64,000 bases of DNA from an uncultured Verrucomicrobiae bacterium (lineage in GTDB: Bacteria > Verrucomicrobiota > Verrucomicrobiia > Chthoniobacterales > JAFAMB01): positions 96,001 through 160,000 of the forward strand of contig CAVXLD010000011.1 of assembly GCA_963762565.1 (NCBI GenBank). Direction: 5' to 3'. Of this stretch, positions 19,454 through 57,465 are shown one piece after another. The notes under the pieces were generated by a model. The model was not told where the DNA came from and did not search any database. It saw nothing but the letters and a program-made list of their open reading frames with translations. Made by a program: the position numbers and the translations under genes. Positions within the stretch are counted from its first letter, which is position 1, and each line of letters opens with the position of its first letter.

Positions 19454-20377
19454 TCACTTCTCTCCCTTACCCAGCACCTTGGAGAGTGCGAGCTCGTTGA
19501 TCGCGACGGGAGTCTGTTGCAACAGCTTGCCCAGGTAAGCCTGGCTGTTCGACTGCGTCTTCTCTTTCCGGAGCTGCTGCGCCAATGCCGCCCGGACCTC
19601 CTCCAGAGTCGGCGTATACGCTTCCTTGATGTCCAGCACCTTGATAATATGCCAACCATCCTCGAGGCGAAGTGCTTCCGAGACAGTATTTTTGCTAAGC
19701 GAACCAAGCTGTGATCGCACTTCAGGTTGGATCTGGTTCTCGGTCAACCAACCGATTTCGCCTCCGCGAGCGGCGCTTTCCGATTCCTCACTATTGGCTT
19801 TGGCGATCGCGCCAAAATCTGCGCCCGATTGGTGGAGACTCTTTTTTATAGTCTCCAGCTTCGCTTGAACTTTATCGGCGGTGGCTTTATCAGCGTTCTT
19901 CGGAAGCGCTAGGAAAATCTGCGCGAGCCGAATTTGTTTGGGAACCAGTAATTGCGTTTTTCTGGCTTCATAAGCGGCTTGCAGCTCGGTTTCGCTCGGA
20001 TAACTATCGGCCGGCTTGGAAACGGATTGCAAGTAGCTCTCGACCACCGCGTTGTCGCGTGCTCGTTGAATCAGCGTGGCGACGGCGGGCTCTTGATCCC
20101 AGTGCTTGGCTAAAGCTTCCTTCAAAACGACTCGTCGCATCAGGAGCGTCCGGACTGTCTGGCTCAGCAAACTCGGATCGCGCGCCAGAGCGGCCTGGTC
20201 CCGCGCATCCAAACTTTCAATCGCGCTACGAATCTCATCCAGCTTTACCTCCGCATCTCCGACTCGGGCGATCACGGTGGAATCCGAATTTCCTGGGTCA
20301 GCGGCGGCTGCAGCATAAGCTCTTTGGCTAACCGCTACCCAACTTGCAGCGAATAAACAGGAGACAAAAAATCTCAC
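19454..20377 (-). CDS. PpiC/parvulin-type peptidyl-prolyl isomerase (SurA/PrsA-like chaperone)
   Basis: IRLAQIF, DFGAIAKANSE, GGEIGW, GWHIIK; start GTG 20377 inferred (ORF open to 20521). Confidence 0.88.
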   Translation of the reverse strand: MRFFVSCLFAASWVAVSQRAYAAAAADPGNSDSTVIARVGDAEVKLDEIRSAIESLDARDQAALARDPSLLSQTVRTLLMRRVVLKEALAKHWDQEPAVATLIQRARDNAVVESYLQSVSKPADSYPSETELQAAYEARKTQLLVPKQIRLAQIFLALPKNADKATADKVQAKLETIKKSLHQSGADFGAIAKANSEESESAARGGEIGWLTENQIQPEVRSQLGSLSKNTVSEALRLEDGWHIIKVLDIKEAYTPTLEEVRAALAQQLRKEKTQSNSQAYLGKLLQQTPVAINELALSKVLGKGEK

Positions 20378-20540
20378 GCAAAGACGCAAAGACGCAAAGC
20401 TTCTAGTAAAGACGGTCGCCACGCCTGGACTTTTTCTTGTGGGCACCGAGAAGGTCTGCCATTCAGGGCGGTTGGCGTTTCTCGAAAAGTCACAGTGGCG
20501 TTCACAAATATTAGTCTTCATCTTTGCGTCTTTGCGTGAG
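20372..20540. repeat. Hairpin element with inverted (CGCAAAGA)n arms
   Basis: CTCACGCAAAGACGCAAAG at ~20373 and CTTTGCGTCTTTGCGTGAG at 20522-20540; single arm at ~57298. Confidence 0.85.
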
Positions 20541-20560
20541 TTTTTATCTGTGTCTTCGGG

Positions 20561-21244
20561 TTAGTGTTTAGAGGGCGCGGGTGAAGCTTTAGGCGCCGGC
20601 GGTACCGAAGCGCCCGGCTTGATCGTCTGATCCAACAATTTATCAGAATAGTCCTGGACCAGGTTCTGGAGTTTCACTTTGGTAATCCCAACGAAAGGTT
20701 CGCGTGCCGTGATCGCGGTACCAAGCCCGAACTTTTCGTACCGGCTCAGAATGTCTTTTCCCAGATCATACAGAGCCAGGTTCTTGGTTTCATCATCCTC
20801 TACTCGTCGTTGCAACACGATTGCCTGCGACTCGAACTTCGCCCGCTGAGCTTCCTTGGTGTTGGCCAGCTCAACGGCTTTATTGTAGGCGTCCTTCCAT
20901 TTGTCCAAGGCATCTTTCATCTGACTGATCAGCGTGTTCTGATCGGTCACCTTGGCGTTAAGATCAGCCATCGCTTTGGTAGCAGCATCTTTATCGGCGG
21001 CAGCTTGTTTGGTGAGTTCGTCGAGGCGGTCGCTAAGTTCTTTCTTTGCTTTTTCGCTTTCAGTTTGAGCGCTCTGTAACGTCGCCACCTGGTTTTGGGC
21101 ATCCCGGAGCTGCAACATCGTGCTGCGCAGCATCCCCCGCAGCCGCTCTTCGGGTGAGTTTGCTTGATCTGCTGCGCGCACTTTTGAGTTGGCCAGAAAC
21201 GAGGCGAACAAACAGAGAAGAATGATGGGAAATTTTCTACGCAT
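20561..21244 (-). CDS. Periplasmic coiled-coil protein of the TPS/TonB cluster
   Basis: Signal MRRKFPIILLCLFASFLA; long heptad region; AREPFVGITKVKLQNLVQDY C-terminus. Confidence 0.82.
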   Translation of the reverse strand: MRRKFPIILLCLFASFLANSKVRAADQANSPEERLRGMLRSTMLQLRDAQNQVATLQSAQTESEKAKKELSDRLDELTKQAAADKDAATKAMADLNAKVTDQNTLISQMKDALDKWKDAYNKAVELANTKEAQRAKFESQAIVLQRRVEDDETKNLALYDLGKDILSRYEKFGLGTAITAREPFVGITKVKLQNLVQDYSDKLLDQTIKPGASVPPAPKASPAPSKH

Positions 21245-21246
21245 AA

Positions 21247-23292
21247 CTAGAATTGAGCGCCGATGTCGAATTGGAATACGTCGGATTTGAACGGAGGTCC
21301 TGAGACCGAGTTGGCGCTGTAGTAATGGAACCCAACATAAACAGCCGGTGTCAGCGCGAGACTGCCGAATATGGTGTAACCTTTCAGGTTGGTGCCGTTG
21401 AGAGGTGTACCGAAATCCGAGTCGTTGAAGCCATCGATCACCGCGTCTGACTCCACATAACGGTACCCGATGCCGAGGTTCCAATCCCACCGTTTCTGCA
21501 GCACGGGTGCGCCGAGCGTTAGATAGACGTTCCAGGCGCTGTTTCCGCCCTCGTAGGTACCTAGGGTTCCACCGGTGGAGGTGCTTCGGTTATTCACTGC
21601 CTTCGCTGCCACAGCGCTTTTATCAAACGCCGTGTTCGTTACCCATTCAGCGGTCAACGATAATTGGAACGGTTCGAAACGGTTATATTCCAGTCTTCCA
21701 GTCACAGCGACCTCATGGAACGGAGTTGCCAGCCCGTAGTATTGAAACTGGTCGATTTGGCCGAAGTCATTGGCGGAGGTGGGCAAGATATTGCGCAGAG
21801 CCATGTAGGTATTACCGTTCTGGGCAAATGCCGGACGGAGGTCATCCGTATTTCCTTGGTCCGTGCTGGTTAGCGGTACGAACGGGGTGGAAAGTTTGCC
21901 CTCGATATTATTGAAATCGTAAAAGGCGCCGGCCACTTTCATGTGAAAGTCGCGGGTTATACTCCAATTGGTCCCTCCCTGGACCGCGTAAAGATATTTA
22001 TCGGTGCTGTCGTATTTGGAGGGAAGCGTATTCGGGAAGTTAAAGTCAGTGTTGTACACCGGGAACGCACCTGCCGTCAGGAAGGGCACCAGGCCTCTAA
22101 GGATCTCGTATCGCCCGCTGATCACCGCCCCGTCGAACCCAAGGTCATTTGCCCATATCAAAGTGGTGGAGAAAAACGGATTATCCATCCGGCCGACCGT
22201 AACAGTGAGATCCCGTTCCGGTAGCCCACCGATCTCCCATTTAAGAAAAGCGCGATCGAGCCAAATCGAATATTTCTGAAAGTTGCCACCCTGGGCGGAA
22301 TTAGCATTGCCGAGTGTCTGGTTCTCGGTAACCGGCGAATCATTTTCACCGGTGGCGCCGCGGATACCGAGACTGAATCCGTCGCCCAAATCGACATTCA
22401 GACCGACTCGGACGCGAAATCGGAATCGATCACGGTCTTTGTCCACGTTGTACTCAGGCGGGAACGAGGTACCGGCGGTATCGAAAGGGGCGCCTGTATT
22501 GATCGCGTTAAAGTTAGGAAAAGCGCCGGTGTTGTCATTACCGCCCGGGAAATTGTCGAGCTCATAGCGAAGGCGAATATCGCCGAAGGGAGTGACCCGG
22601 GAGACCCACTCCGGCACCGATGCCGGCAAACCTAATTTTTCATCCCGCAGCACGTCTTGTTCGATTTGGTCTCGCAGCTGGTTCTTCACAACCTCCGGAA
22701 TGTAGGTAACCCTGACCGTGTTATCCGGGCCTGGCTGCAAAGCGGGCGGTATCTCTTCCTGGGGTGGTGAAGAAGCTGGGGGAACATTCTGGGCCTGAGC
22801 CGTTGCGTTCTGGAGTTCTCCGTTGGGTGGCAACAGCCCGGACTGAGCGAAATCCGAGCCCTGAACCAGAGTGGCGCTCGCTTTTGCCGCTTCCTCTTTG
22901 GCCTTAGCGGCATCAGCCTCCGCCTGCTGGATAAGGTCGGACGCCTCGTCCTTACTCAGTACTCCTTTTTGCACGAGCCGGTTAATCAGATTGATCACCA
23001 CGTTCTGAGACGGTGTGGGCGATGGTTCAGGAGTTGGTGAGCCTGAGGGCGGTGATCCAGGATTTGTTGGCGATGCTGCCGGACTGGGCGATGCCGCCGC
23101 CACTGGCGATCCCTTCGGACTAGGTGACGCCAGCGGAGCCGGCGAGGGTGGGGCGCCATTCTCAGAGGTTGGCGAACTCTGAGGGGTAGGAGAATTGGCT
23201 GGGTCCGCGGCATGTACGGTTGCCACGGACACAAAACAGATAACCAATAACAACAATCCCGGCCGGCGGAACAGAATTTTTCTATAGTTCAT
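21247..23292 (-). CDS. Putative porin (Porin_5 family) with Pro-rich N-terminal periplasmic extension
   Basis: Signal peptide; GDIRLRYE, RDRFRFRVRVG, LDRAFL; C-terminal Phe (QFDIGAQF). Confidence 0.85.
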   Translation of the reverse strand: MNYRKILFRRPGLLLLVICFVSVATVHAADPANSPTPQSSPTSENGAPPSPAPLASPSPKGSPVAAASPSPAASPTNPGSPPSGSPTPEPSPTPSQNVVINLINRLVQKGVLSKDEASDLIQQAEADAAKAKEEAAKASATLVQGSDFAQSGLLPPNGELQNATAQAQNVPPASSPPQEEIPPALQPGPDNTVRVTYIPEVVKNQLRDQIEQDVLRDEKLGLPASVPEWVSRVTPFGDIRLRYELDNFPGGNDNTGAFPNFNAINTGAPFDTAGTSFPPEYNVDKDRDRFRFRVRVGLNVDLGDGFSLGIRGATGENDSPVTENQTLGNANSAQGGNFQKYSIWLDRAFLKWEIGGLPERDLTVTVGRMDNPFFSTTLIWANDLGFDGAVISGRYEILRGLVPFLTAGAFPVYNTDFNFPNTLPSKYDSTDKYLYAVQGGTNWSITRDFHMKVAGAFYDFNNIEGKLSTPFVPLTSTDQGNTDDLRPAFAQNGNTYMALRNILPTSANDFGQIDQFQYYGLATPFHEVAVTGRLEYNRFEPFQLSLTAEWVTNTAFDKSAVAAKAVNNRSTSTGGTLGTYEGGNSAWNVYLTLGAPVLQKRWDWNLGIGYRYVESDAVIDGFNDSDFGTPLNGTNLKGYTIFGSLALTPAVYVGFHYYSANSVSGPPFKSDVFQFDIGAQF

Positions 23293-23334
23293 AGTCGGCG
23301 AAGTAAGTTGCTAAGCGGAAGACGAAAGGAATGG

Positions 23335-24054
23335 TTAGGTTGAGCGGTGTGCGGTAACTCGTAGAACAATCGGCATCGGCATATCCGAGGGCGGCGCCTC
23401 TTTGAGCTGGAGACCGGTCAGGACTTCATTCGTGATTGCGCTATCGACTGCCGGGTCACCGGTGCTCCCAACTAGCTGGGCTTTGGTTACCCGGCCGGTG
23501 TTATTGGCCCAGATCCGAATCTTGACTCCGGGAATGGACGCAGACTTGGTTCGGCTATTTGCCCGCAGCGCTTCTTCGATCCTGGCCTGAACTTGAGCTG
23601 CGTACCAGCCGAAGCGGCTACCACCACCACTGCCGCCTCCATCCAGTAAACCGTTGCCGCCTGGTCGGCCGACCAATCCAAATGAATCTCCTTGTCCTTC
23701 TCCCTTGGCATTTACACCTAGCGGACCGGGCGGCGCTTCTTTCTTACTGGCTTCTTTTGGCTTATCATCCGGATGGAGCGGTTTTGTTTCCGGCTCTACC
23801 ATCTGTTTCTGCTCCATCATTTGCTGCTGAGGCTGGGGCGTGGATTGAGGCTGTGGCGGTGGCGGCGTTGGTGTCGAGACCGGCGGCAGCAGCTTAACGA
23901 AAGTCATTGGTGCGACTCTGGCGGTTGGCTCTTTGGTGGTGAGCGTCTTGATAGCCAGTGTGATCGGCGCGATCAGAATGACGGCGCCGCCCACCCAGAT
24001 CAGGTAGCGAAACCTCCGGTAAAAACCTAACTCTTGTTCGTCGCCAGGATCCAT
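23335..24054 (-). CDS. TonB/TolA-like energy transducer
   Basis: N-terminal TM, Pro/Gln-rich spacer, TonB_2-like C-domain (GSTGDPAVDSAI). Confidence 0.85.
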   Translation of the reverse strand: MDPGDEQELGFYRRFRYLIWVGGAVILIAPITLAIKTLTTKEPTARVAPMTFVKLLPPVSTPTPPPPQPQSTPQPQQQMMEQKQMVEPETKPLHPDDKPKEASKKEAPPGPLGVNAKGEGQGDSFGLVGRPGGNGLLDGGGSGGGSRFGWYAAQVQARIEEALRANSRTKSASIPGVKIRIWANNTGRVTKAQLVGSTGDPAVDSAITNEVLTGLQLKEAPPSDMPMPIVLRVTAHRST

Positions 24055-24171
24055 GTGGGTTAGCGGTTTCTCAATCGTTCTCGTCCTCGTCCTCGATCGG
24101 CCCTTCGCGTTTACAGTCCTAAGCCGCAATTTGCTACCGGCTATTTGCTATTTGCTATTCCATCTGCTCCC

Positions 24172-24576
24172 TCATTTAACTAACGGCTTAGTAGCCAGAC
24201 CTACCTGAGTAATTCCAACCCGGCCCAGCAAATCCAGTACGTCCATAATCTTCTGATATTGGGTTTGACCATCGCCGCGTACGACGACAGGGAAATCGGG
24301 GGTTTGCGCCTTAATCTGGCTTAACCGTTGGGCTAGCTCCTCAAGTGTAACCGGAATGGTATCCAGAAAGATCTTGCCTTCGTTAGTTACGGTGATGGCT
24401 TTCGTCTGCGGTTTCGCCAGGCTCGGGGCGGCGCTGGCCTTAGGTAAATTGACCTTTAATCCCTGCACCGACGCTGTCGTCATGATGATGAAAATTACGA
24501 GCAGCACGTACGCTAGATCGAGCATCGGCGTGATATTAATATCGTCGTACGGTTTCTCTTCAGATTGAACTTGCAT
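24172..24576 (-). CDS. exbD: Biopolymer transporter ExbD/TolR
   Basis: INITPMLDLAYVLLVIFII; VNLPKA; VVRGD. Confidence 0.93.
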   Translation of the reverse strand: MQVQSEEKPYDDINITPMLDLAYVLLVIFIIMTTASVQGLKVNLPKASAAPSLAKPQTKAITVTNEGKIFLDTIPVTLEELAQRLSQIKAQTPDFPVVVRGDGQTQYQKIMDVLDLLGRVGITQVGLATKPLVK

Positions 24577-24587
24577 AGGATTAGAAT

Positions 24588-24757
<170 letters not shown>

Positions 24758-24766
24758 TTTTGATTG

Positions 24767-26611
24767 TTATTCTCTAACGAACTCATCGGGCTTGCTGCTG
24801 TAGAACTCGGCCATCTTGGTGGTGAATTCGTCGATGAACACTTGCATGTCGCTGGTCATCGATTTGATCCGAGTAAGCAAATAGTTGTAACCAAAGAGTG
24901 AGGGAATGGCGACGCCGAGACCGGCAACAGTCGCCACCAAGGCGGCGGCGATACCGGGTGCGATCGAGTTGACGTTGACGTCGCCCGCCGCGGCGATGGC
25001 GGCAAAGGTAATCATCACGCCCACTACCGTACCTAGCAGTCCTAGGAATGGACCGCCGGAAATCGCTAGCGTCAGAAACACCATCAAGTTATTTAGTTTC
25101 TGCGTTTCGCGGACCAGGCCGCCATCGAGGCTCGCCCGGATAGCTTCAATTGATGATGCAGATAATACCTTGGATCCGGGCCCGGTCATACGCCGCCGAA
25201 TTTCTTCGGCCCCGATATGATAGATGCGATAGATAGCAGCGCGCCGGATCACCCGGCTGCCGATCTTGTCGAAACGCGCATCCAAAGCTTTAACATCCCG
25301 TTCGTTGTTGGAATCCAAGGCAGTAAGATCCCGCGAAATATGGTCCCATTCCTTAAGGAAACGATCGTTGCCCTTACCAACACTGTTGAGGTAGGCGAGC
25401 CGGTTGAACATCACGAACCAGCTAAAGAGTCCCATCAATATCAGGATTCCAATGACAACCCAACCGTCCGGTGTTACCGACTTCAGGATGACGCCGAAAT
25501 AGCCTCCGCTGAGCCAGCTTGACGTCTGTTCGTCCTCACCGTAGGTGAGTAACTTGGAGGTATCGCCGGGTCCCTGGTTTGTGGCGATAAATTTGATCAG
25601 CCCGGGTGATAGACTGACCTTCGAAATCTCCAATTCATCCATTTCCCCTTTGAACCCGGCGCCGTTAGGATCACCGCCCAAGATAGGTGCACTGGTCATT
25701 GCCGGCACCCTGGCGCTGAGCGTACCGTACGATTCGCCATCGACGTACAGGGTGATCATCGATCCGTTAGAGGCGATGGCTAAATGGTGCCAAGTCTTAG
25801 CCGTTAACGGCGTTCCAGAATTCGTGCGACCAGAGCCTCCGGATCCGTTGACCTCGACATAAGGCACGCCGTTATCCAGACCGATCACGAAACTCGATCC
25901 GTTATCTCGACGACTATACAGCGCGGTGTTCGGTTGTAGCTCGTCGGCATTAACCCATGCGCTCCAGGTAAATGTTGCTCCATCGCTCCAGGCCAGGGAC
26001 GGAGAATCGGAAAGGGTAATATTGTTCTGGCCGTCATACCGTACGCCATTCCCAATCAGAGAGCCCTCTACTTTGGTAGCGGCCGTTTTAGCGTTGTTGC
26101 CATAGCTGGTCACATCGACCGGCGGCTCTTCCGTAAAATGATAAACCAGGAGGGTTTCGGGATCGTAGGTGACTTTTGCGTTATCTACCCGGGACGCACC
26201 GTTCCCGGTGTTACCATAGTAGAGCCAGAAAGCAGTTTTGGCTCCCGGCGCCACATTAGGAATTTTTACCCAGATAAAGGCTTCGTTAAGGAGGGAATCG
26301 TATTTCTCGACGTGATACGTAAGCAGGGTCTTATCATCGGCGGCAATGAAGCGGATATCGCTGCCGTCGTCCTTAGCGGCCCCGAATTGAAAATTACCGT
26401 CATGCAAGCGCAATAGAACGACCGCGGGTCCTATCGGTTGGTTAATCGCGACTCCGGTGGCAGAAGTGTCGATCGTAATTTTCTTGCGGATCGACCACTC
26501 GCCATTCCACCAGGCCTTGGCCTGGCCTGTGAGAAACAGAGCGATGCCGAAAACTAACAAAAAAACGTTTAGCTTTGAGAGGTTAAACGGTAGGGATGAA
26601 TTCCCGCTCAT
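24767..26611 (-). CDS. exbB: DUF2341 + LamG (ConA-like) + MotA/TolQ/ExbB fusion
   Basis: WWNGEWSIRKKITID and DGSDIRF (DUF2341); WHHLA..ITLYVDG (LamG); GPFLGLLGTVVGVM...ALVATVAGL (ExbB). Confidence 0.9.
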   Translation of the reverse strand: MSGNSSLPFNLSKLNVFLLVFGIALFLTGQAKAWWNGEWSIRKKITIDTSATGVAINQPIGPAVVLLRLHDGNFQFGAAKDDGSDIRFIAADDKTLLTYHVEKYDSLLNEAFIWVKIPNVAPGAKTAFWLYYGNTGNGASRVDNAKVTYDPETLLVYHFTEEPPVDVTSYGNNAKTAATKVEGSLIGNGVRYDGQNNITLSDSPSLAWSDGATFTWSAWVNADELQPNTALYSRRDNGSSFVIGLDNGVPYVEVNGSGGSGRTNSGTPLTAKTWHHLAIASNGSMITLYVDGESYGTLSARVPAMTSAPILGGDPNGAGFKGEMDELEISKVSLSPGLIKFIATNQGPGDTSKLLTYGEDEQTSSWLSGGYFGVILKSVTPDGWVVIGILILMGLFSWFVMFNRLAYLNSVGKGNDRFLKEWDHISRDLTALDSNNERDVKALDARFDKIGSRVIRRAAIYRIYHIGAEEIRRRMTGPGSKVLSASSIEAIRASLDGGLVRETQKLNNLMVFLTLAISGGPFLGLLGTVVGVMITFAAIAAAGDVNVNSIAPGIAAALVATVAGLGVAIPSLFGYNYLLTRIKSMTSDMQVFIDEFTTKMAEFYSSKPDEFVRE

Positions 26612-26839
26612 CCGGAAAGTCCGGCGATTGACCCGGTGAACCGCACAAGAATGATTTGGTTCCGCCAGGTGCTTTAGCTGCGCTGATTGACTCTGCATTG
26701 GTGGCTAGAAGACTTCGATGTTTTCTGAAAATCGTTGGTTCTAAGCAGCCCTTAAACCGGCGCGTTTGCGCCGGTTTAAGGGCCATCTAACCCGCAATCG
26801 ACCTGTTGCTTTCTCTCTCATGTATTTTTTGCGGGTTAG

Positions 26840-28618: not shown

Positions 28619-28959
28619 ACCGAACGACTTTTCACGGCAGTTCAGATCTCGGGTAGAGGTTCAGTTTCCTAGCACTCATTTGCCCGGTCAAACAAGTGCT
28701 CGATTGTTACGATCCTGCGACAATCGGGTGTGAAAGGTGAGAGGTGAGAGGTGATTGCTGGGCGCGTGGTGAGTTGAGGAGATTGCTGAGCGCTGATGAC
28801 GTCCCAATCTAGTAGGAGTACGAGGACTAGAGTCTTCGGCCGAACAGGACTTAGGCGACTCGATGGACTTACGAATGAGTTCCCACAATTCGCATGATTT
28901 TCAGAGATCCCCCCTGTGATCAGGCCGGCGCTAGCGCTCCCTGACTTGCTCACCAATCA

Positions 28960-37900: not shown

Positions 37901-40900
37901 AGCAAACTCAAGCTCGCGCCCGGGCGCTGGGTTACCGTCGCCGTGTCCGGGTCGCCGACATACACCGGCATTAGCAGAGGATTTCCCATCGCGGTCGTGA
38001 TGCTCGCTCCTGTCGGTATTTTGTAGCTCGCGGCACTAAATTGATAAACCGGTTCCGTCACATTGATGTCTGCTCCCGGTGCTACCGTGAGAGACTCCAT
38101 CCCGTGGATTGTGTAACTCGAGAACCCCTGGCTGAAGAACGAGGTCGGCAACACGAGCTGGTCCGCCTTTGCTACAGTGATCCCATCGCCGATGACCACC
38201 GAGTAAGCTTGCAGGGCAAGGGCGCCACCCGCTTTGACGCCGTAAGACTCTATTGTGCCATCTAGAACGAGCGCTCCTCTCGATACTGCCTGCGCAACCG
38301 TGAGCAAGGTTCGCTTAGCGTGTTTCGACGTTACGCTAACGTTACCCACTTGATCCGCTTCAATCGAGATATTTCCCCCCGAACCATCGAGCGTTTTCCG
38401 GTTCGGCAAGATGGCGGCTCCGGAAGACGCATCGATCAGGCTTCCATTGGAAAGCGTTATCCCTTGATTTGAACTTAACGTTACATTGCCCCCGTTGATA
38501 TAGGCCTCGCCGGTGATATCGGTGGGGTCCAGGAACCCGTTGGTCCATAAACCCGCCGTATCGATCACAATATCCGGTCCAAGTGTAATTCCAGCGATCG
38601 CCCTCGCCGGTTTCGTGGATGGTACGTTTGCGGATTGGTTATAAGAAACCGCATCAATCGATACGCTGCCGTCGGGTGCGGTGATGGTGCCGTCGATAAC
38701 CACATTTGCCGCCGTCAACGAGATCTGGGCGCCGTTAGCAAACGCCAACGGATCGGCAATCGTCAAATAGCCCTTCGCGCCCCGCGGGATGTTATTCGCC
38801 GATGAGCTGGCGTCGTCCGGATGCGACGCGCCGCTCTTGGATTTCGGTACCGCCGCTTCAACATGGATTCTCAGTCCTCCGAGTTGAGCACTGTTAATCT
38901 GCGAAGCTGAAAACGTGTTGGTGTTGAATAGGTTGCTATTGATCGGGGATGTAGCCGTCAGATTCGCGGTCAGCGAGGAGTTGTTATCACCAAAGACAAC
39001 GTTGCTGGAATAAGGAAAGCCGTTGTTCACCTGACTCTCCGGGCCAAGGACGAGCGATCCATTAAGAGTAACCGTGCTCTCGGTCAGCAGAAAAGGATCG
39101 GTCACAGTCGATGGCCGGGCGCTGTCCTGTTGCGGCCCATCAACGGTCTGCGCATCGATGGTTCCCTCGAAGATCGAGGTCCTAGCATTGATCGTCAGAG
39201 TGCCTGCATCCCGGCCCTCGGTATAGCCGGGAACATAAATCTGGCTCGGCTGGGTGATAACGTTGGCGTACGTCTCGGTAACATTCCAGCGGGGGTGATT
39301 GACCACGAACCCGTTAAATACGCCAATATAGGTAAGCCCGGCCGGAGCGGTATTAACATTATAAATACGGCCATCGCTGGCGATGACATAGCTCTCCTTA
39401 AGATAGCCACCCTGGTACTGGATAGAACCGCCGGCGATATCAAAGACCGAACCTTTCTGTGCGACCACCTGGTTCGCTGAGAGGGTAATCGCGCCCCCGA
39501 TGGTGTCCCATTCATCAATGCTGTGCCCAACGTTATTCAGCTCGCCGCTAACTTCCAATAGCCCCCCGGGCGTGTAATAGCGGTTCTCGGTATTGTAGGG
39601 CGCGTTGTAACTCGAATTCGCCGGTACTTCCACCAGCTGCCGCAGATCCACGTACACGGTATTATTAAATAGCGATTGCGTATCCCGGTTGTCCGGAGCG
39701 TCTCGGAGCTCAAACCCTTGAATGTTGACCGCCAGGTTGTTGTCCGACATCGGCAGAGATACGTTCACTAAGCCCGATACGTCGAGCTTGGCGCCGTTCC
39801 CGACGAAGACCCGTTTCCCGGCATAGACGACGATTTGCCCCGCAGTCGCGCTGGTGAGTGAGCCGTTGGCGAAATCGACCATGCCGCCGGTTGTAATCTC
39901 GATCCGGGAAATACCGACAAGATCAGGAAGTAGAACTTGATCATTGAGCAGCGGTTTGGCGTTTGAGTAAGCGATGTCTTCCGTATAGGCTGCTGTCTGT
40001 TGCGGATCGAGCGCGGTGCTGGAATTAGGATCCGGAGCGATGTAGGTGATACTGCCGGGCGCCAAAGTCACGCTGCCGGTCACTTCCGAGGTGGAGGTTA
40101 ACAGATGAATGGTGCCGCGTTGATCGACCGAGCTGGTTGCGATGATAATACCGGATTGGGTCACCTGATGGCCGACCATGGTGATATCGCCGGTGGTCGC
40201 CTCGATCACCCCCGTGTTCAAAGTGGTTCCACCAGAAGTCACCTGCACCTCGGCCCCCAAAGTGGTCGAGGTCTCGTTCCCGGCGGAGGAACTCACTGAG
40301 CTGGTGCCGGGGATTATACTGTACCCCGGTAGCAAGGAGAATTCTTTGCCGGCGGCCAGGACAGTTTGTCCGTCTGCCGTGGTAATAGAACCGGCGTTCT
40401 CTACCGATCGGCCCAGGAGAATCACCGAGCCGCCTCGGTCCCCGGTTCTCAAAGGCGCATTTGTTACCAGTTGTGCGCCGAGGTCAACAATCACCGAGCC
40501 TAACCCACCGGTAAAGCTCGGGCTACCAAGAGAACTATTTGAGTTGACCGCAGTATAAATGCCGTCTGTGGTAAATTGCGAATCGGTGATCCTGGCTGCA
40601 GCAGCGAGCAACGTACCAACATTGATCTGGGAGGCGCCCCCGAAAATGATCCCGTTCTGGTTGATAAGATAAACCTGACCCTGTGCCTTAATCGAGCCCA
40701 GGATCTGGCTCGGTGTGCCACTAAGAATCCGATTTAACGCAACCCAAGTGTTAGCCACGGCGCCCCCGCCGCTCTGGTTGAAATCGACCGTCGTATTTTT
40801 GCCGACGTTAAAAGTTTGCCAGTTTAAGATCGCCTGTGACGCCGTCTGTTGAATCGTAACCGTGGTTTGGCCGTTCGACACCGATTGGGTCGGCTGATTT

Positions 40901-41271
40901 GCGCCTTGCCATTCCGCGTTTTTGCCCGTTGCGATTTGTAGTCCGCCGGTGGTTAAACCGTTGGCCACATTGCTCGGTGCGTTCAAAGCTGCGTTCCGGG
41001 CTGCCTGCTGCATGGCTTGCACCGATTTCATCGCTTCCGCTGCCCGAGTCAGGATGTTGTTAGCGTTGTTCTGCAGCTGACTCATCGCTGCTTGATTCCC
41101 GCCATAGTAGCTGCTGGCCGCAGGACTGTTCGACCAGCCGGTGTTACCACGGAGAATGTCGCCGGCTTTGGCGGCAGCGCCGAGGGCGGAATAGCAAATA
41201 GCGAATAGCAGATAGCAAATCGAACCGCGAATGAACACGAATGAACACGAATTCGATTGCCTGGATGACAT
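28960..41271 (-). CDS. Giant filamentous haemagglutinin-family TpsA exoprotein with C-terminal DUF3739 (PdtA-like)
   Basis: TPS domain (LNWQTFNVG, PSQILGSIKAQGQVYLINQNGIIFG), beta-helix repeats, DUF3739-like GDINAG...GAGIGTL...GTINAGEAGIR; start ATG 41271 or 41316. Confidence 0.93.
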   Translation of the reverse strand: MSSRQSNSCSFVFIRGSICYLLFAICYSALGAAAKAGDILRGNTGWSNSPAASSYYGGNQAAMSQLQNNANNILTRAAEAMKSVQAMQQAARNAALNAPSNVANGLTTGGLQIATGKNAEWQGANQPTQSVSNGQTTVTIQQTASQAILNWQTFNVGKNTTVDFNQSGGGAVANTWVALNRILSGTPSQILGSIKAQGQVYLINQNGIIFGGASQINVGTLLAAAARITDSQFTTDGIYTAVNSNSSLGSPSFTGGLGSVIVDLGAQLVTNAPLRTGDRGGSVILLGRSVENAGSITTADGQTVLAAGKEFSLLPGYSIIPGTSSVSSSAGNETSTTLGAEVQVTSGGTTLNTGVIEATTGDITMVGHQVTQSGIIIATSSVDQRGTIHLLTSTSEVTGSVTLAPGSITYIAPDPNSSTALDPQQTAAYTEDIAYSNAKPLLNDQVLLPDLVGISRIEITTGGMVDFANGSLTSATAGQIVVYAGKRVFVGNGAKLDVSGLVNVSLPMSDNNLAVNIQGFELRDAPDNRDTQSLFNNTVYVDLRQLVEVPANSSYNAPYNTENRYYTPGGLLEVSGELNNVGHSIDEWDTIGGAITLSANQVVAQKGSVFDIAGGSIQYQGGYLKESYVIASDGRIYNVNTAPAGLTYIGVFNGFVVNHPRWNVTETYANVITQPSQIYVPGYTEGRDAGTLTINARTSIFEGTIDAQTVDGPQQDSARPSTVTDPFLLTESTVTLNGSLVLGPESQVNNGFPYSSNVVFGDNNSSLTANLTATSPINSNLFNTNTFSASQINSAQLGGLRIHVEAAVPKSKSGASHPDDASSSANNIPRGAKGYLTIADPLAFANGAQISLTAANVVIDGTITAPDGSVSIDAVSYNQSANVPSTKPARAIAGITLGPDIVIDTAGLWTNGFLDPTDITGEAYINGGNVTLSSNQGITLSNGSLIDASSGAAILPNRKTLDGSGGNISIEADQVGNVSVTSKHAKRTLLTVAQAVSRGALVLDGTIESYGVKAGGALALQAYSVVIGDGITVAKADQLVLPTSFFSQGFSSYTIHGMESLTVAPGADINVTEPVYQFSAASYKIPTGASITTAMGNPLLMPVYVGDPDTATVTQRPGASLSLLAGVNGNLVATSNVGAGGTINIGAGSTIYVDPGQSIDIEGAGQITVDGKLRAPSGSIEIVNYRPLGGVGGTGKTISYEPHGLSIWIGSDSTLDVAAQAFVALDRFGRPYGLVPNGGSIVLGSTGGTQSASPGDYTEVTSTDAFVIIRPGAILDASGASAVLDLNAGANPTESLGGTSVSIVQRDPVYAASNGGSISLSSYDGIYIDGKLEAAAGGPGGAGGTLAITFAGPIYQVLPPFAGNDNDANALVPDNLRTPRTIVIGQDPVPSALPSSLEPGTENSNLKVGYAYLSANTVTEGGFANLSLFAANSILFKGNVTLSAPESVELSAVSLADTSRHAQVVIAAPYVLLTTPTAQYQGEPEPGYGYGVYLTTGLSALYPSNAPQGESYGRADLTIEADLIDLGSAAFGDFETPGPNTAYLGKTINYPGFKDVNFVSQGDIRFLSDASVTSPGSFTFTAAQLYPVSGASNAKVIAGDIPVLNGAAQPFAPGTSISISRISNVDPAVPQSVFGQLTFEAKTINQGGIVRAPLGSLIFGTNPTIGNSQATKAVNFLPGSITSVSANGLTIPYGGTTDGVIYNVNGQTFTTGDVIDATFAATRGITLEGYSVSVSHGALLDLSGGGKLFGEGFISGRGGSLDVLSTALINQNPSYTFSASGNAVYAIVPGVQTYAPATVDTNTGYTGSMPSIGQQITIPAGVPGLPAGTYILMPANYALLPGAFRVELGGRGNTNQPPVLSLDNGSFEVDVNEGAANTSFQNALPNEAIITPASAVETYSEYDLETYSAVAVSQAQKFNQPRPVLPVDASTLTLNLTPSPEPESQLTFAGTADFEPAPAGYSGTLVISGAGGSGSQNIEITGAGAIPTKGWISLNASAVDAIDAPNVYIGGYLALSTQGSFEVNFVANAAEVAIRTSAILRGADVTLIAQGKDGITVESGAIIDTLGRGNPAFDSSSGYFFTNSYAAQNAIYAVLAVSNGYLDIQPGLGNATGPITVDNGASILSDGTIAFATSAGLNLGEEANYGAKYIGFAATDINIGTPASLAAAQQNGTLPVGLLLDQSLLDQLLAGDPASGAPALQMLTLSASQSINFYGTVNINTLDPATGRSTLQELVFDSPAVYGAGTGTNSVTITTSTLIWNGLAQLGLAPGTSNTIVYTNTPPGPVIAGGPGTGSGTLNIVANEIIFGYAPQDERQNITSLDRLVLGFSTVNLTATQEITANSKGSFSVYLAETGPGTYTNGNLNLITPLLTGEPGSVLSYKTGGALMLMPPAGAQPATVMSDSLGAEIDLSADTITDSTSVLAASGKVTLTANGDISLNAGSQIDVSGLTVAMFDQKVSTFGGDVSLESTTGNITQDTSSIINVSAIGDNAGSLTITATGTSAGQVTLGGTLLGSSTGNFNAGSFDIRAQNAGDFTMLNQLLDTGGFFYSRSFDIKQGSITIAKGTTIMAHIVDISVDNGSLIVAGTIDASGATPGTIRLSAGGNLEVASTGVLDVHNTVLQVDSYGQAIDAENRGVIELTVEDGSNTSVTTLNNGTGSLLLDAGATIDMSSPDGIDRGDLELNVPRTGVTSGNVRIVANGQVNITGAQTIALNAFWTYAPTDPNGTIVQSAGTGAPNGAIILDQVSQDSTTFINTALSNGSLAALSGLTAYTQAFHLRPGVEIVSATPNGNLTVVGDIDLSEYRYPSVNPNSQLNLNYYGSGEPGVLILRAGGNLNVDGSINDGFAPLNLNGMTYPDENGWVLFANKATLSNVVVETGVTLFDGTKFANDPVSLSYAISINPAKLNPNVVIPVMVTLSAQATVSTPFIATATITLPDGLVFHAGQTVPAGTQLLAGTTLASGSVLPVSIAINAVTWPAGAPLSDFSGPVTMTGPSITLAAGDLFPVGSTPKFATGVQSVATRPPSGTSGIQGQVYAVEPMLPLGPNGQVPLSWSIQLIAGADTGAADTRVLQAQSALNGSGNLVLDDPHYDLASNTPIFSVIRTGTGYLDLLAGGSFVEDSLYGIYTAGARTPTITAADGGSFDLPRGNYQGSILGSNYASSVYEYIASNDYQAYYPAGGGNVLVLAQGDITGFSVTGLNGIYSATYNVSNWLWTQGGSLIGQHAAWWINFGTYAPNDTGAPFVAGFTGIGALGGGNVMVSAGGNAGVMAFSSNTETSGSLVIAIGATGRVVSINGSGGGDLVETGGGNVTVEIGETLNPVAVGYGNAIDPGFSGGTFVNLRGNLNIQAGSIGGIDLVYGQSGTGDSRPTGVSTAAVYSYAFGGPQLIPGDATIQIQVRGDLVLGNATDAGIINPFSVVNTTEGTETADPSNQGLANSFFSLWTAATSIEGLSAGGNIVPNAVNSSESGNQGLFPATLRLFATSGSVYAGLSSPLELAPSPNGQLEILAEQSIYAEAGSGSVSGQIFEISGASTAAGSLPSPFDPAFYLLSTMGHTPGTALTSLMALAWNTIPATTPPHDNPTLFAFELDSASGTLHANDNAPALIYAVTGDIVGLQFGQLTTTSFGGQTVPEYIGAKAVDIRAGDDIVNFGQSSSSPSFILNNSKTDVSVVSAGNEILFANVDIAGPGNLEVSAGGNVYQGDQGNIVSIGLIGAPKIKNPDGGAGIIVFAGVGSEGPNWEGFANFYLNPANLANPNQLLVDQPGKVVQTYQHQLLTWLQQNYSYTGSSTGALAYFESLPIEQQSIFLLQVYFSELNQSGLEYNDPTSPFYQSYLQGQEAIATLFPTTGAKNGQKITYNGSLTMFSGQAGDSSILTDFGGGITTLVPGGQTIVGVTGVTPGAHAGILTQGSGDINMYSEGSVLLGESRILTTYGGNIVIWSGAGDINAGIGAKGTVIFAPPGIVYDDYNDIILSPTSPSSGAGIGTLDPIPDIPAGNVNLIAPEGTINAGEAGIRASGNANLAARVIVNAANISVSGKTTGIPTVVSPNVAAVTAASNAAGANTNAANEVAKQQANQAEQQPESVIIVEVLGYGGGDSSGD

Positions 41272-41509
41272 GGCGCAATGCTTGGTTCGCCCTGCGTCGA
41301 GTCTAGCTGGATGCATATCTATAAGCTTTGAATTGTATTATGCGGGATTTCGGAATGCGCCGCGCTTAAATGAGTTTCTCGCCGAGGTCTGCTCAGACGA
41401 ACTAATCCCGCTCCGGACCCGCCTAATTCGCGTCTATTCGCGTCCATTCGCAGTAAACTTTCCGACCTTTGTGCTGAATCCCGACCAATCACGAATCACC
41501 AATCACCTG

Positions 41510-42040
41510 TCACTTCTCTTTATTCCCAAAGCCAACTACCGTGGCCTTGATCAGAGACGGATTTTCTTTTGGCTTGGTGATGGACCGCTGAAACTTCTCT
41601 AGATCGGTGATCGAGTTACTGGTTGCTCCCATCGCGGCGCCGGTTAGCTCGTGGGTATTGATCTGTTTCGGTCCACCGAAGATGATGCCGTTGGCATCGA
41701 TCACATAGATTTGCCCATCGGAGTGGACGGTCGCCAGGACCTGGCTGGGCACCGCTGCCGGATTGTTACTGACGTTGATCATGACGCCGCCGCCGCGAAT
41801 ATTACTCGCCTGGTAGGTCTGGGTGGCGGTTTGAAGCGCCTGCACGGCCTGGTTCGCTTGCGCCTGATTAGCGAGCGCCGCGTGCTGCGCCGCTAAGCCA
41901 GGGTTACTGATCTGTTTAAGAATATCGCCTGTGCCGGCATCTGCGATCGTTACCGCTGACAACCAAAGCCCAAGAACCGGCCCTATCGAACCGCCGAAAA
42001 AGCCGGCGATCCCGGCCGTTCTGCCTCTCATTGAGTTCAT
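41510..42040 (-). CDS. Miniature TPS-domain protein
   Basis: Signal peptide, GDIL, PSQVLATVHSDGQIYVIDANGIIFGG, C-terminal PSLIKATVVGFG. Confidence 0.78.
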   Translation of the reverse strand: MNSMRGRTAGIAGFFGGSIGPVLGLWLSAVTIADAGTGDILKQISNPGLAAQHAALANQAQANQAVQALQTATQTYQASNIRGGGVMINVSNNPAAVPSQVLATVHSDGQIYVIDANGIIFGGPKQINTHELTGAAMGATSNSITDLEKFQRSITKPKENPSLIKATVVGFGNKEK

Positions 42041-42189
42041 AAAAATTGATCTAACCTCTGTTCTTGCCGGGCAGCGCCGCATCGTCCCTGACGCTGGATG
42101 AAAACACACGGTTAAAAGCCGGGCGCGAAGGCACCAGCAACCGTCTCTTAGAGGTTATCGGTCGCTAGGAGTTGCCTCAATCCGCGAAT

Positions 42190-42662
42190 TGTCACAATCG
42201 TGTGACATTGGGCACAACCATGGAGCGCCGCCGCGCTTGCAAGGCCGCGGCCTCCGTTCTCGGCGATGGATGAAGACTGATCAATCGATCCCCGAATCCG
42301 TCATTGCGCAGCGCGACAGCGGCCGTTTTCCAACAGCCTGTTAAATTAGCCAGCAGAGGAGACGCGCGCCGAATGTTACATTTGTGTAACAATCGGACCC
42401 TCTAACCGCAAAGTGAGATCGAGCTCTACTTACCTTGATCTTAACTAGCCGCCGCGATTTTCCAGAAAAACTAACAAATTCCGTCGACTTCGTTTAGTTG
42501 GGAACGAGATTAAAACCAGACTAGATTGATAGAGTTTTTACAATGTTAGAGCTAAGCGCAATTCGGCACATATAATATCCAACTTTCTAACCACAGAACT
42601 CGCTCAAATTCAGTGGGTTCCGCGTCACGTGCTTGGCGCAACTTTGTGACGCAAATGTAACC
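42190..42662. promoter_or_regulatory. Three TGTNAC-N5-TGTRAC sites (Pho-box-like) in divergent promoter region
   Basis: 42190-42207, 42374-42391 and 42645-42662, each with 11-bp half-site period. Confidence 0.55.
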
Positions 42663-42790
42663 ATACGCTAGTTGTTCCGAGCTTGATTACGGCGAAGGTA
42701 GTGGCCCGATCAGTCGTACGCATTCGGAAGGCACGGATGGGTTCTTCGGGGTGCCGCTTCTGACGGGTTAACCCTAGCTCGTTTAATACA

Positions 42791-44125
42791 TTGAAAACGA
42801 TAAAAATCACACTGGCGGGTCTACTCGCCTTAACGCTCGTCTGTGGGGCTTCTGCTGCCACGACGGTATTACATATTACCGGTTCAACGGCTTACCGGGG
42901 TGCGACCCTGGTAGCCATATCAGAGATTCTGCAACCGGGCTATAAGGTGGCCTATGTGGCCAGCGCCGCTGAGGCCTACTCTAAAGCGAACATGGTGCTC
43001 TTCACCGGTACGACAACCTCGGGTCTCACCGTTGAGATCAAGACCGCTTTCTTCGGATCGATCGGTGGCGTGTGCAACGTCGCCGGCGGACTGACGATTG
43101 GACCGGGAGGAACTGCATATACGGATGGCCAAACCATCGGCTGGTTGTCGGACACGAATCCGACGGCCACAGGTAGCGTAACATTCTCGGGCGGTACCTA
43201 TACGGTCAGCGGCGGACAGAACGTCACGGCAGCGGCAGCGATATTTGACAGCCCAGTCGTGGCCGATTGCACCATGTCTGACTCCTTCCAAGCATCCGCT
43301 CCGAAGACCTATCGTACCCCTGCACTCAGCGGTAAAATCGTTGGTGTAGTGCCGTTTGTTTGGATGTGCAGTCCGGGCACTACGGCCGCCGTTGGAACGG
43401 TTAGCGATATGTCCTCTGCCAACGCTCAGTCGCTCTTAGCCGGTACGCTTACGCTCGGCGATCTCACGGGCAATAGCGGAGACACGGTGGCCGTTTTGTG
43501 TGACGGTCGTGACCAGGATTCCGGTACCCGCGTTGCCGCTTTGGCGGATTGCGGTTACGGAGTCTTCACGAAGGTGATTCAGTATCAACCGCTGTTCGAT
43601 GGGGCCACTAAGGCGACCGTTCCTCCTCCTACGCCGCCGAGCCCGACGGGGAACAACATCACAGGAGCTGCAAAATGGCCCAAAACCTCCTCAGTTGACT
43701 CCGTTCCTTCTCCGATCGGAAACTCGGGTTACAATAGCGGCGGTCTGGTCGCCGACGCGATTTTGGTCCCGTCTGCGTATCCGAAGTGGTTCGTCGCGTA
43801 CCTCGGCGAAAACGATGGCGTCACGGCGCTGGGGAATACCGCCAACTTTGTGTTAACGTTCAATGGCGGTTCCTTGACCTACAACGGCACGAGCTGGGAT
43901 AACTCGGGGGTTGAAGGCGGTTCGTACACTTTCTGGGGCTACGAACACTTCCTCTACCTCTCTTCCTTGGCGGGAAACCCCTTGAAGGTTGCTGACCTTA
44001 TCAAGAACGAGATTCTCAATGATACCGCGATCGCCTCCGGTGTGGCAATCTCGAGTATGACCGTTCATCGGGACAAAGATGGCGGCGCCATCCTCCCGGG
44101 TGGCACTCCTCCGAACAAGCCTTAA
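42791..44125 (+). CDS. Secreted PstS/DING-like periplasmic-binding-protein-fold protein
   Basis: Signal peptide; ITGSTA, GRDQDSGTR and YTFWGYEH match PstS-family motifs. Confidence 0.7.
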   Translation: MKTIKITLAGLLALTLVCGASAATTVLHITGSTAYRGATLVAISEILQPGYKVAYVASAAEAYSKANMVLFTGTTTSGLTVEIKTAFFGSIGGVCNVAGGLTIGPGGTAYTDGQTIGWLSDTNPTATGSVTFSGGTYTVSGGQNVTAAAAIFDSPVVADCTMSDSFQASAPKTYRTPALSGKIVGVVPFVWMCSPGTTAAVGTVSDMSSANAQSLLAGTLTLGDLTGNSGDTVAVLCDGRDQDSGTRVAALADCGYGVFTKVIQYQPLFDGATKATVPPPTPPSPTGNNITGAAKWPKTSSVDSVPSPIGNSGYNSGGLVADAILVPSAYPKWFVAYLGENDGVTALGNTANFVLTFNGGSLTYNGTSWDNSGVEGGSYTFWGYEHFLYLSSLAGNPLKVADLIKNEILNDTAIASGVAISSMTVHRDKDGGAILPGGTPPNKP

Positions 44126-57289: not shown

Positions 57290-57465
57290 CCAATGAATCT
57301 CACGCAAAGACGCAAAGTCGCAAAGAGAAGGGCATAGACTTCGGATGAAGTTCCACGAAAAATGCGTGAAATCCACACTGGTGAAACACAAACCAAACGA
57401 GGTGATCGCCTCACACGCTGCGCCTTTCTTCCACCTATCACCAATCACCAATCACCAATCACCAA

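Follow-up and report, generated by a model that had tools for sequence, protein, structure and literature searches.

A giant two-partner secretion exoprotein, an ExbB/ExbD-type motor and a Porin_5 protein are inherited as one unit in two bacterial phyla and carry Pho-box-like promoters in a verrucomicrobium

In this work, we describe a gene cluster of an uncultured Verrucomicrobiae bacterium, located at positions 19454 to 44125 of a 64,000-nucleotide stretch (C11:96001-160000 of a 6.1-Mb, 15-contig genome; hereafter the window). The cluster encodes a giant two-partner secretion (TPS) exoprotein TpsA with its transporter TpsB, a motor composed of a DUF2341-LamG-ExbB fusion, ExbD and a TonB-like protein, an outer-membrane protein of the Porin_5 family, a coiled-coil protein and, divergently, a periplasmic binding protein of the PstS fold. 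The results show that TpsA, TpsB, the motor, Porin_5 and the coiled-coil protein are inherited as one unit in two phyla, that the PstS-fold protein joins this unit in Verrucomicrobiota, and that the promoters share a direct-repeat motif with the pstS, PHO4, phosphatase and ppk genes of the host. We propose, with moderate confidence, that these genes specify a single envelope machine, controlled by PhoB and powered by protons, that serves to scavenge phosphorus; its transport step is inferred. The cluster is known in Proteobacteria, and its Verrucomicrobial form appears to be new.

Results

Gene order and co-inheritance in two phyla

The genes of the cluster are as follows:

41510-42109, minus strand: mini-tpsA, a truncated TPS-domain open reading frame (ORF), 199 aa (TIGR01901 24.3 bits, cut-off 29.1)
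28960-41316, minus strand: giant TpsA exoprotein, 4118 aa (Pfam TPS 87.5 bits, DUF3739 115.2 bits)
26840-28618, minus strand: TpsB, an Omp85-family outer-membrane transporter (POTRA_2 67.1 bits, ShlB 62.6 bits)
24767-26698, minus strand: DUF2341-LamG-ExbB fusion, 643 aa (Pfam DUF2341, Laminin_G_3 and MotA_ExbB)
24172-24576, minus strand: ExbD/TolR-type motor subunit (ExbD 108.4 bits)
23335-24129, minus strand: TonB/TolA-like protein (TonB_2 29.2 bits; TIGR01352 and TolA below their cut-offs)
21247-23292, minus strand: Porin_5 outer-membrane protein, 681 aa (Porin_5 617.8 bits)
20561-21244, minus strand: periplasmic coiled-coil protein with a signal peptide, 227 aa, the PA0697 counterpart (start revised to ATG at 21244)
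19454-20521, minus strand: PpiC-type peptidyl-prolyl isomerase whose N-terminus carries an anchor or a signal (Rotamase 69 bits)
42791-44125, plus strand: PstS-fold periplasmic binding protein with a signal peptide, 444 aa (predicted structure and family profile)

From mini-tpsA to ppiC, nine co-oriented genes form an unbroken minus-strand run with a divergent plus-strand gene beside it, all of them where an earlier note, made from the sequence alone, had placed them. That note had regarded the set as one module and had proposed a co-occurrence check, which we performed on an even sample of 251 Pseudomonadota (one of them the chosen centre) with E <= 1e-60 as the threshold for full-length Porin_5. 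DUF3739, the C-terminal family of TpsA, and full-length Porin_5 were found in the same 8 of the 251 genomes, the centre included, and neither was found in the other 243; DUF2341 was present beside the porin in the same 8 genomes, plus 2 others. In Verrucomicrobiota, DUF3739 and full-length Porin_5 (E < 1e-170) were likewise confined to the same 5 of 151 genomes, the window's genome included. Fisher tests without the centres gave 9e-14 for Pseudomonadota and 5e-8 for Verrucomicrobiota, values that are optimistic because the sampled genomes are related. The check was thus passed, with no discordant genome among the 402 sampled in two phyla.

Furthermore, we searched one genome per species with the C-terminal 239 aa of TpsA and, of at least 554 relatives found, retained the best 80. 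In 7 of these 80 loci, the genes for TpsB, the ExbB fusion, ExbD, Porin_5 and the coiled-coil protein stand in the window order. These seven module loci comprise 1 Verrucomicrobial, 5 betaproteobacterial (Paraburkholderia, Variovorax, Hydrogenophaga, Herbaspirillum and one other) and 1 Pseudomonas sp. locus; five of them gave a match to the TonB-like gene, and the identity to the window proteins ranged from 37 to 75% for TpsB and from 55 to 92% for ExbD. The other 73 DUF3739 loci had no adjacent module, and all 40 genomes tested from among them (40/40) carry a full-length Porin_5 elsewhere (E <= 1e-173), mostly in a single copy. Several genomes have two or three DUF3739 loci, one Hyphomicrobium combining three loci with one Porin_5; a multiple-locus pattern was described by Llamas et al. 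also in Rhodopseudomonas and Janthinobacterium (PMC2729926).

The search anchored on the porin returned 80 loci, all labelled Verrucomicrobiota, with the coiled-coil gene after the porin in 78, the TonB-like gene in 72, ExbD in 65, the ExbB fusion in 62-63, TpsB in 60, a TPS-domain gene in 59 and PpiC in 20; where a gene is missing, the locus is in many cases a short contig. Most loci have the TPS-domain gene after the module, whereas this gene precedes the module in the Pseudomonas cluster; in 50 of the 59 loci its open frame runs off the locus, often at more than 3000 aa, and in the sampled genomes such downstream giant TPS genes end in DUF3739. In the window and in its relative G001, tpsA precedes tpsB, which is the proteobacterial arrangement, and both have a small truncated TPS ORF. 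In the window, this mini-tpsA is 37% identical to the N-terminus of TpsA over 94 aa (E 1e-11), and its 187-aa counterpart in G001 is located after ppiC; it is probably a remnant or a small accessory gene outside the core. PpiC, found in 20 of the 80 porin-anchored loci and in 5 of the 7 TpsA-anchored module loci (L005, L051, L066, L073, L077), is an accessory chaperone, not a universal component. In other words, the single module of the earlier note stands as a core of TpsAB, motor, porin and coiled-coil protein, from which PpiC and mini-tpsA drop out.

The counterpart in Pseudomonas

The published order in P. aeruginosa is pdtA (PA0690), phdA, pdtB, exbB2, exbD2, tonB4, the PA0696 porin, PA0697, PA0698 and the PA0699 PpiC (PMC7035377, PMC4971064, PMC2729926). 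There, pdtA is transcribed alone and a second promoter drives phdA, pdtB, exbB2D2, tonB4 and PA0696-PA0701 (PMC4971064), both transcripts being induced by low phosphate via PhoB and the sigma factor VreI (PMC4971064, PMC7035377, PMC2729926). Where these three papers deal with the cluster, they describe its TonB system as 'still uncharacterized' and list PA0696-PA0700 as 'unknown'. The layout, the low-phosphate induction and the lack of an assigned function, all given in the earlier note, are confirmed by the same passages (PMC7035377, PMC4971064, PMC2729926), and Llamas et al. had already pointed out in 2009 that tps, exbBD and PA0696 are associated in some Proteobacteria (PMC2729926).

The Pseudomonas sp. 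locus of our TpsA-anchored scan (L077) contains the genes for TpsA, a transposase fragment, TpsB, DUF2341-LamG-ExbB, ExbD, TonB, Porin_5, a 215-aa protein, YbjN, PpiC and LysR. Its Pfam layout equals the published PA0690-PA0701 order and is gene-by-gene homologous to the window, with nearly the whole length of TpsA aligned (36% identity over 2658 aa plus 40% over 1084 aa). P. aeruginosa was absent from the 80 loci that a search with the Pseudomonas porin gave, and therefore the link to the PAO1 gene names rests on the layout and the papers. Judged by homology and by the core genes shared in the same order via L077, the cluster in the window is the Verrucomicrobial counterpart of the P. aeruginosa pdtA-pdtB-exbB2D2-tonB4-PA0696-0699 cluster.

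The two clusters also differ. Control by phosphate starvation is experimental in P. aeruginosa, whereas here it is deduced from Pho boxes. The P. aeruginosa cluster has VreAIR, Hxc type II secretion, a phdA/transposase-like gene and YbjN (PA0698), whereas the window has none of them; a YbjN gene between the coiled-coil gene and ppiC is excluded because the gap (20561 to 20521) is only 39 nt. In contrast, the PstS-fold gene of the window has no counterpart in the P. aeruginosa-type cluster (0 of 14 proteobacterial module genomes). A Pfam scan of 39 window ORFs (38 of them at least 134 aa long; ORFs overlapping longer ORFs were left out) revealed no type II secretion system (T2SS), sigma-factor or anti-sigma family, bearing out what the earlier note had said of Hxc and of extracytoplasmic function sigma factors. 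The same note had assumed a non-proteobacterial host, and for the porin, ExbB and TpsA the closest relatives that bear a name are indeed Verrucomicrobiota, mostly Chthoniobacterales. Database records titled Gordonia sp. and Leclercia tamurae (L206, L214) carry a porin 79% identical to the Pseudomonas porin, and their labels look doubtful.

The variable place of tpsA, before or after the module in Verrucomicrobia and often far off in Proteobacteria, together with the separate promoters of pdtA and of the phdA-pdtB operon in P. aeruginosa (PMC4971064), might mean that two separate Pho-regulon systems are at hand, namely a TpsAB adhesin and an independent Ton-type uptake system (motor, Porin_5, PstS-fold protein), with only the regulator in common. 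Strict co-occurrence, without one discordant genome among the 402 sampled and with both parts in all 40 targeted genomes, weighs against this explanation, because shared regulation alone would not produce it; moreover, tpsB always comes first in the motor-porin operon. We therefore consider two separate systems improbable.

A literature search, with subscription papers and supplements outside its reach, found no description of the Verrucomicrobial form of the cluster and no function assigned to the module; within the same limits, neither the strict co-inheritance of DUF3739 and Porin_5 nor the PstS-fold family nor a Verrucomicrobial Pho box was found described.

Pho-box-like sites in the divergent promoter and upstream of tpsB

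The Pho box consensus of E. coli consists of two half-sites 11 bp apart. A Pho-box-like element, GTCACAGAAATGTCAC, with two half-sites at the same distance, lies upstream of the canonical pstS of the host, and the relaxed pattern also occurs upstream of PHO4, a PF04185 phosphoesterase, a PF01663 phosphodiesterase, an MFS-pstS2 operon and a TonB-dependent receptor. The strict form, TGTNACA-N4-TGTNACA, is found in 3 places in 6.1 Mb, 2 of which are between the PstS-fold gene and mini-tpsA. We built a position weight matrix (PWM) from five sites outside the window, those upstream of pstS1, PHO4, the phosphoesterase, NPP and the MFS-pstS2 operon, and scored the sites of the cluster as follows:

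42644-42665, plus strand: Pho-box-like site 3, TTGTGACGCAAATGTAACCATA (PWM 19.4), 126-147 nt upstream of the PstS-fold gene
42371-42392, minus strand: Pho-box-like site 2, TGTTACA-N4-TGTAACA (PWM 15.9, strict match), in the middle of the divergent promoter
42187-42208, minus strand: Pho-box-like site 1, TGTCACA-N4-TGTGACA (PWM 11.3, strict match), 78-99 nt upstream of mini-tpsA
28702-28723, minus strand: degenerate Pho-box-like site, TTGTCGCAGGATCGTAACAATC (PWM 8.8), 84 nt upstream of tpsB

The 681-bp divergent promoter thus bears three PWM matches of at least 10 against 0.025 expected (Poisson P 2.6e-6), and site 3 ranks 4th genome-wide among PWM sites outside the training set. Another match outside the training set (18.3) lies 38 nt upstream of the second ppk (C10:176963-179152), and among further top matches several are upstream of unannotated genes or within genes. 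The related loci gave a similar result: 29 of 58 loci have boxes with a score of at least 12 upstream of tpsB, 31 boxes in all, where the remaining parts of these loci would predict 1.17, and some boxes were also present at tpsA starts. The closest syntenic relative, L005 (G001), has boxes upstream of both the PstS-fold gene (16.8, 11.6) and tpsB (17.2).

In 13 of the 80 Verrucomicrobial loci, a gene for an OmpR/PhoB-type regulator adjoins the module beside tpsB. The best match of this regulator in the host (52%) is C13:6946-7632, which is also the host's top match to the PhoB model. It is located on a contig other than the window's, with T2SS-E/F genes and a HAD hydrolase on one side (C13:2000-16000, L195); its opposite flank encodes a 522-aa porin that matches Porin_5 in part (78.5 bits) and, beyond it, an ABC ATPase. 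This regulator/T2SS-E neighbourhood echoes the Hxc-regulator-pdt arrangement of Pseudomonas. Taken together, the Pho-like boxes, the PstS-fold partner and the PhoB-type regulators beside the module in other species support in silico the link to phosphate that the earlier note had suggested.

The host has two polyphosphate kinase genes, and the copy within the window (51600-53774, minus strand) has no box with a score of at least 10. Other recurrent neighbours in the 80 porin-anchored loci were a T2SS ATPase (T2SS-E), beside tpsB in 4, and a Metallophos phosphoesterase, in 3.

The divergent PstS-fold protein

As a single sequence, the 444-aa product of the divergent gene had no match in Pfam (even at E <= 10), NCBIfam or the PDB. 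Its family is large, comprising 973 representative clusters at E <= 0.001, and the structure predicted from 71 family members (predicted local distance difference test, pLDDT, 90.5; predicted template modelling score, pTM, 0.90) has a type II periplasmic binding fold closest to phosphate binders. In the Foldseek comparison, the first 30 matches listed were all phosphate-binding proteins, and the first chain of another type came at rank 39; the best match was 4lat (E 6.5e-10, target template modelling score, TM, 0.75), and PfluDING and its relatives (E 1.4e-4, TM 0.43-0.45) ranked behind short PstS proteins. The family profile searched against the PDB with HMMER found the PstS chains 4ecf (E 2e-9) and 4exl (E 1.1e-8), with the SD and R...SGT motifs aligned, and hhalign of the family against the host's single PstS sequence gave nothing significant. 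Moreover, the four consensus motifs of the family, ITGSTAFR, GSVGG, MSD and GRDxDSGTR, appear in the same order as the motifs GAGATF, GVGSGAG, GASDA and TRSDSSGT of the host's own PstS. We take the corresponding residues (Thr/Phe loop, Ser, Asp, Arg...Ser-Gly-Thr) to be phosphate ligands, as in E. coli PstS. Since Foldseek, the family profile and the motif order agree, the PstS/DING-like label given in the earlier note is correct at the level of fold and motif.

DING proteins are marked by a DINGG N-terminal motif. Compared with PstS and DING proteins, the protein described here has about 180 extra residues, no PBP_like_2 match and no adjacent pstCAB; it is linked not to pstCAB but to the TPS-motor-porin module, and its neighbours are otherwise unrelated genes. 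In Verrucomicrobiota, the co-inheritance with the module is strict: the family profile has matches in exactly the 5 module genomes of the 151, and the gene adjoins the module or tpsA in 4 of the 5. A locus scan anchored on the PstS-fold family, with a 12-sequence alignment as the query, showed a module gene within 10 kb in 51 of 74 loci and in 36 of 42 among loci of at least 20 kb.

The ORFs following the PstS-fold gene were considered as members of the system and rejected; they recur in 0 of 234 related loci (80 + 80 + 74). A PEP-CTERM protein family (about 276 aa) is encoded between the PstS-fold gene and tpsB in 15 of 80 loci, e.g., L101:3003-3833, and is absent from the window. Environmental metagenome-assembled genomes titled Akkermansia muciniphila have the PstS-fold gene with the module (L355) or next to part of it (L298); together with those of L206 and L214, these labels look doubtful, reflecting contamination or mislabelling.

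The motor, the porin and the coiled-coil protein

The ExbB fusion has hydrophobic segments at residues 36-58, 403-422, 537-564 and 576-594, so placed that the DUF2341 + LamG arm (about 345 aa), lying between the anchor or signal 36-58 and the channel helix 403-422, is predicted to be periplasmic. The best NCBIfam match of the fusion is TolQ (123 bits, below the cut-off). All 120 homologues listed share the DUF2341-LamG-ExbB architecture, as does the protein of Pseudomonas sp. L077; ExbB homologues bearing DUF2341 are known and, in the part of a 2025 survey that covers them, are listed as uncharacterised (PMC12505986). The TonB-like protein, for which 38 homologues were aligned, has a membrane anchor, spacers rich in Pro and in Gly, and a C-terminal domain about 95 aa long. 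With classical Ton and Tol systems, the cluster shares a MotA/ExbB channel subunit, an ExbD/TolR subunit and an anchored protein that is rich in Pro and ends in a domain of the TonB/TolA type; in contrast to them, ExbB here bears the large periplasmic DUF2341-LamG arm, the equivalog models all fall below their cut-offs, and, unlike in classical Ton systems, the adjacent outer-membrane protein is not a Plug-barrel transporter.

This outer-membrane protein, the 681-aa porin, consists of a signal peptide, a Pro-rich linker, an invariant N-terminal motif SQNVTINLINRLV and a barrel region of 535 positions. Neither Plug nor TonB_dep_Rec was matched in it, with a Pfam library that detects Plug and barrel in other proteins of the host. 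The motif SQNVTINLINRLV presumably resembles a TonB box. In the barrel, alternating arginines (RFRLRAR) are invariant in the alignment and may line the channel. No solved relative of the Porin_5 profile was found by sequence, and a protein language-model atlas gave weak leads to DUF3373, alginate export and OprO/OprP at 0.91-0.92. OprP and OprO, Pho-regulated outer-membrane channels with a basic lining (atlas lead 0.91), serve here as a working analogy only, as they belong to Porin_O_P and the window porin to Porin_5, which are different Pfam families. Smaller porins (360-615 aa) with split partial Porin_5 matches (E 1e-14 to 1e-37) are found in 27 of 151 Verrucomicrobiota without the module; they form a separate porin subfamily, and therefore a Pfam match to Porin_5 is by itself no marker of the system.

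The coiled-coil gene starts with an ATG at 21244, 2 nt past the stop codon of the porin gene; the 227-aa frame with its signal peptide replaced a 309-aa ORF overlapping the porin, which was rejected. The protein is 26-30% identical to the product of the proteobacterial gene at the same position (E 1e-15 to 1e-23), and the protein atlas placed it only in unnamed clusters.

The giant exoprotein and its transporter

TpsA and TpsB constitute a two-partner secretion (type Vb) pair, having a TPS-domain exoprotein and an Omp85-type TpsB with POTRA. In TpsA, the TPS domain occupies residues 140-406 and DUF3739 residues 3951-4061, and no Pfam family was matched in the roughly 3500 aa between them. The conserved C-terminal DUF3739 region ends in SVIIVEVLGYGGGD, and SVIIVEVLGYGG is conserved at the C-terminus as a beta-strand-like motif; the profile of the region found no solved relative by sequence. 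The C-terminal 239 aa, 53-72% identical among the best 80 of the at least 554 relatives from two phyla, are the best conserved part of the protein; the N-terminal 439 aa, in the loci where they were seen, are 32-71% identical.

According to PMC5422565 and PMC2729926, PdtA has a part in virulence towards a nematode model host and is a target of antibodies raised by patients, which raises the possibility of a contact-dependent weapon or virulence device, with TpsA delivering a toxic activity under phosphate scarcity and the other genes serving its deployment. Such an explanation is very improbable for the window. CdiA/CdiB/CdiI systems have a polymorphic C-terminal toxin after a VENN-type motif and an immunity gene, whereas the TpsA C-terminus is conserved across the 80 loci and the next gene is tpsB. 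Toxin delivery is unlikely because, besides this conservation, TpsA has no VENN motif and no immunity-like gene is present: neither the TpsA body nor the adjacent genes gave a Pfam match to a toxin or immunity family. Moreover, the hosts are soil Verrucomicrobia.

In the spacer between tpsB and exbB (window 26699-26839), GCCCTTAAACCGGCGC-AAAC-GCGCCGGTTTAAGGGC forms a 16-bp stem without mismatch, and CTAACCCGCAA...TTGCGGGTTAG is another inverted repeat. These stems were left unflagged by the consensus terminator scan because they lack a T run; in general, the consensus promoter and terminator scan gave sites no more numerous than in shuffled sequence.

Other features of the window

The base composition is even throughout the window, and DNA of the locus is present in soil metagenome runs. 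Just downstream of ppiC, on the minus strand, there are genes for a Metallophos phosphoesterase and a ferritin-like protein with a twin-arginine translocation (TAT) signal (window 15233-16651 and 16982-18151), and positions 16671-16692, 20 nt ahead of the start of the Metallophos gene, hold a Pho-like box of low score (10.1); as members of the system these genes were rejected, recurring only in the closest relative, L086. The heptamer GTGATTG forms tandem arrays at window positions 2211-2237, 4420-4460, 5832-5844, 19427-19446, 28955-28967, 41487-41506, 51551-63, 57436-57469 and 63597-63609 (20 matches to the 13-mer against 0.05 expected, 19 of the 20 on the minus strand). The arrays are intergenic, directly after minus-strand stop codons and just ahead of plus-strand genes, and may be a strand-biased repeat element of the host genome.

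Discussion

The machine that we favour may work as follows. Under phosphate limitation, a PhoB-type regulator would turn the unit on; TpsB would export the filament, the conserved C-terminal region of TpsA staying at the envelope, and the filament would bind or expose extracellular phosphorus-bearing material. The proton-driven motor, acting via the TonB-like protein, would open or drive the arginine-lined Porin_5 channel, and the periplasmic PstS-fold protein would then take over the phosphate-bearing ligand, while PpiC, where present, would aid the folding of exported parts. The nearest working precedent is the heme-hemopexin system HxuABC of Haemophilus influenzae, where a TpsA protein frees heme for a TonB-dependent transporter and where, as proposed for the window, a TPS surface protein and Ton-energised outer-membrane uptake are combined in one operon (as outlined in PMC5422565). 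In contrast to HxuABC, the window has a Porin_5 protein without Plug and a motor of its own, and the nutrient would be phosphorus rather than iron.

The main rival of this mechanism assigns the motor to the filament. The TonB/TolA-like protein and the DUF2341-LamG arm would then act on TpsB or on the TpsA C-terminus, so that the filament is exported, anchored, released or retracted. Porin_5 and the coiled-coil protein would be structural, the whole would let the cell adhere or remodel its surface when phosphate is short, and the PstS-fold protein would be a co-regulated scavenger or sensor. Several observations can be read in this way. The best conserved part of TpsA is its C-terminal 239 aa with the beta-strand-like end motif, several DUF3739 tpsA genes per genome share a single module, the strict co-occurrence ties the porin to this type of TpsA and not to phosphate genes generally, and the motor is TolQR-like by score. 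Two-partner secretion, however, is known to need no envelope motor (PMC5422565), a barrel of 535 positions with invariant alternating arginines looks like a channel, and uptake accounts better than secretion for a PstS-fold partner whose co-inheritance is strict in Verrucomicrobiota. On balance, we regard a motor devoted to the filament as less likely than phosphorus uptake.

A number of points weigh against phosphorus uptake by a single machine. The TolQ/TolR models outscore the ExbB/ExbD models for the motor subunits, and every curated cut-off is missed; therefore, a Tol-like envelope role is possible. The porin, having no Plug domain, is not a classical TonB-dependent transporter. One full-length locus (L100, 21.7 kb) has a porin 56% identical to the window porin and no module gene within 10 kb; this porin is a stray paralogue or belongs to a rearranged locus. 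The PstS-fold profile has no match in the 14 module-bearing proteobacterial genomes, the tpsB-proximal box of the window is weak (8.8), and the C13:6946-7632 regulator reaches 247 bits with the PhoB model against a cut-off of 296. In P. aeruginosa, single mutants in tpsA, tpsB, the tonB homologue and PA0696 left the VreI-induced lethality for zebrafish unchanged, and the passages on these mutants mention no phosphorus phenotype (PMC2729926). Finally, the transport, the substrate and the contact between the TonB-like protein and the porin are putative, the TonB-box-like nature of SQNVTINLI and the RFRLRAR arginine ladder are read from the sequence, and the Pho box was defined in silico.

A bolder form of the phosphorus-scavenging model can be put forward only tentatively, as possible rather than probable: Porin_5 might represent a new class of motor-driven outer-membrane channel, different from the Plug-barrel TonB-dependent transporters and always paired with a giant DUF3739 filament, the two acting as a phosphorus 'fishing line and hatch'. 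The filament would bind particulate or polymeric phosphorus sources, a dedicated TolQR/ExbBD-like motor, equipped with a lectin-like periplasmic arm, would either gate the arginine-lined channel or pull the filament in by its C-terminus, and the Verrucomicrobial PstS-derived receptor would take the cargo. If true, this would make the cluster an ancient two-phylum module and a major unrecognised phosphorus route in soil bacteria.

Conclusions

The Pseudomonas cluster, known since 2009, shows strong induction by phosphate starvation as well as expression during infection. We provide evidence that filament, motor and porin are strictly co-inherited in two distant phyla and that several filaments can share one motor-porin set. 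With this co-inheritance, the PstS-fold partner and the Pho boxes, a list of co-regulated genes becomes a single testable machine, and the work yields, in addition, a candidate Pho box of Verrucomicrobiota and a new PstS-derived protein family. The results point to phosphorus scavenging, not virulence, as the original job of the machine.

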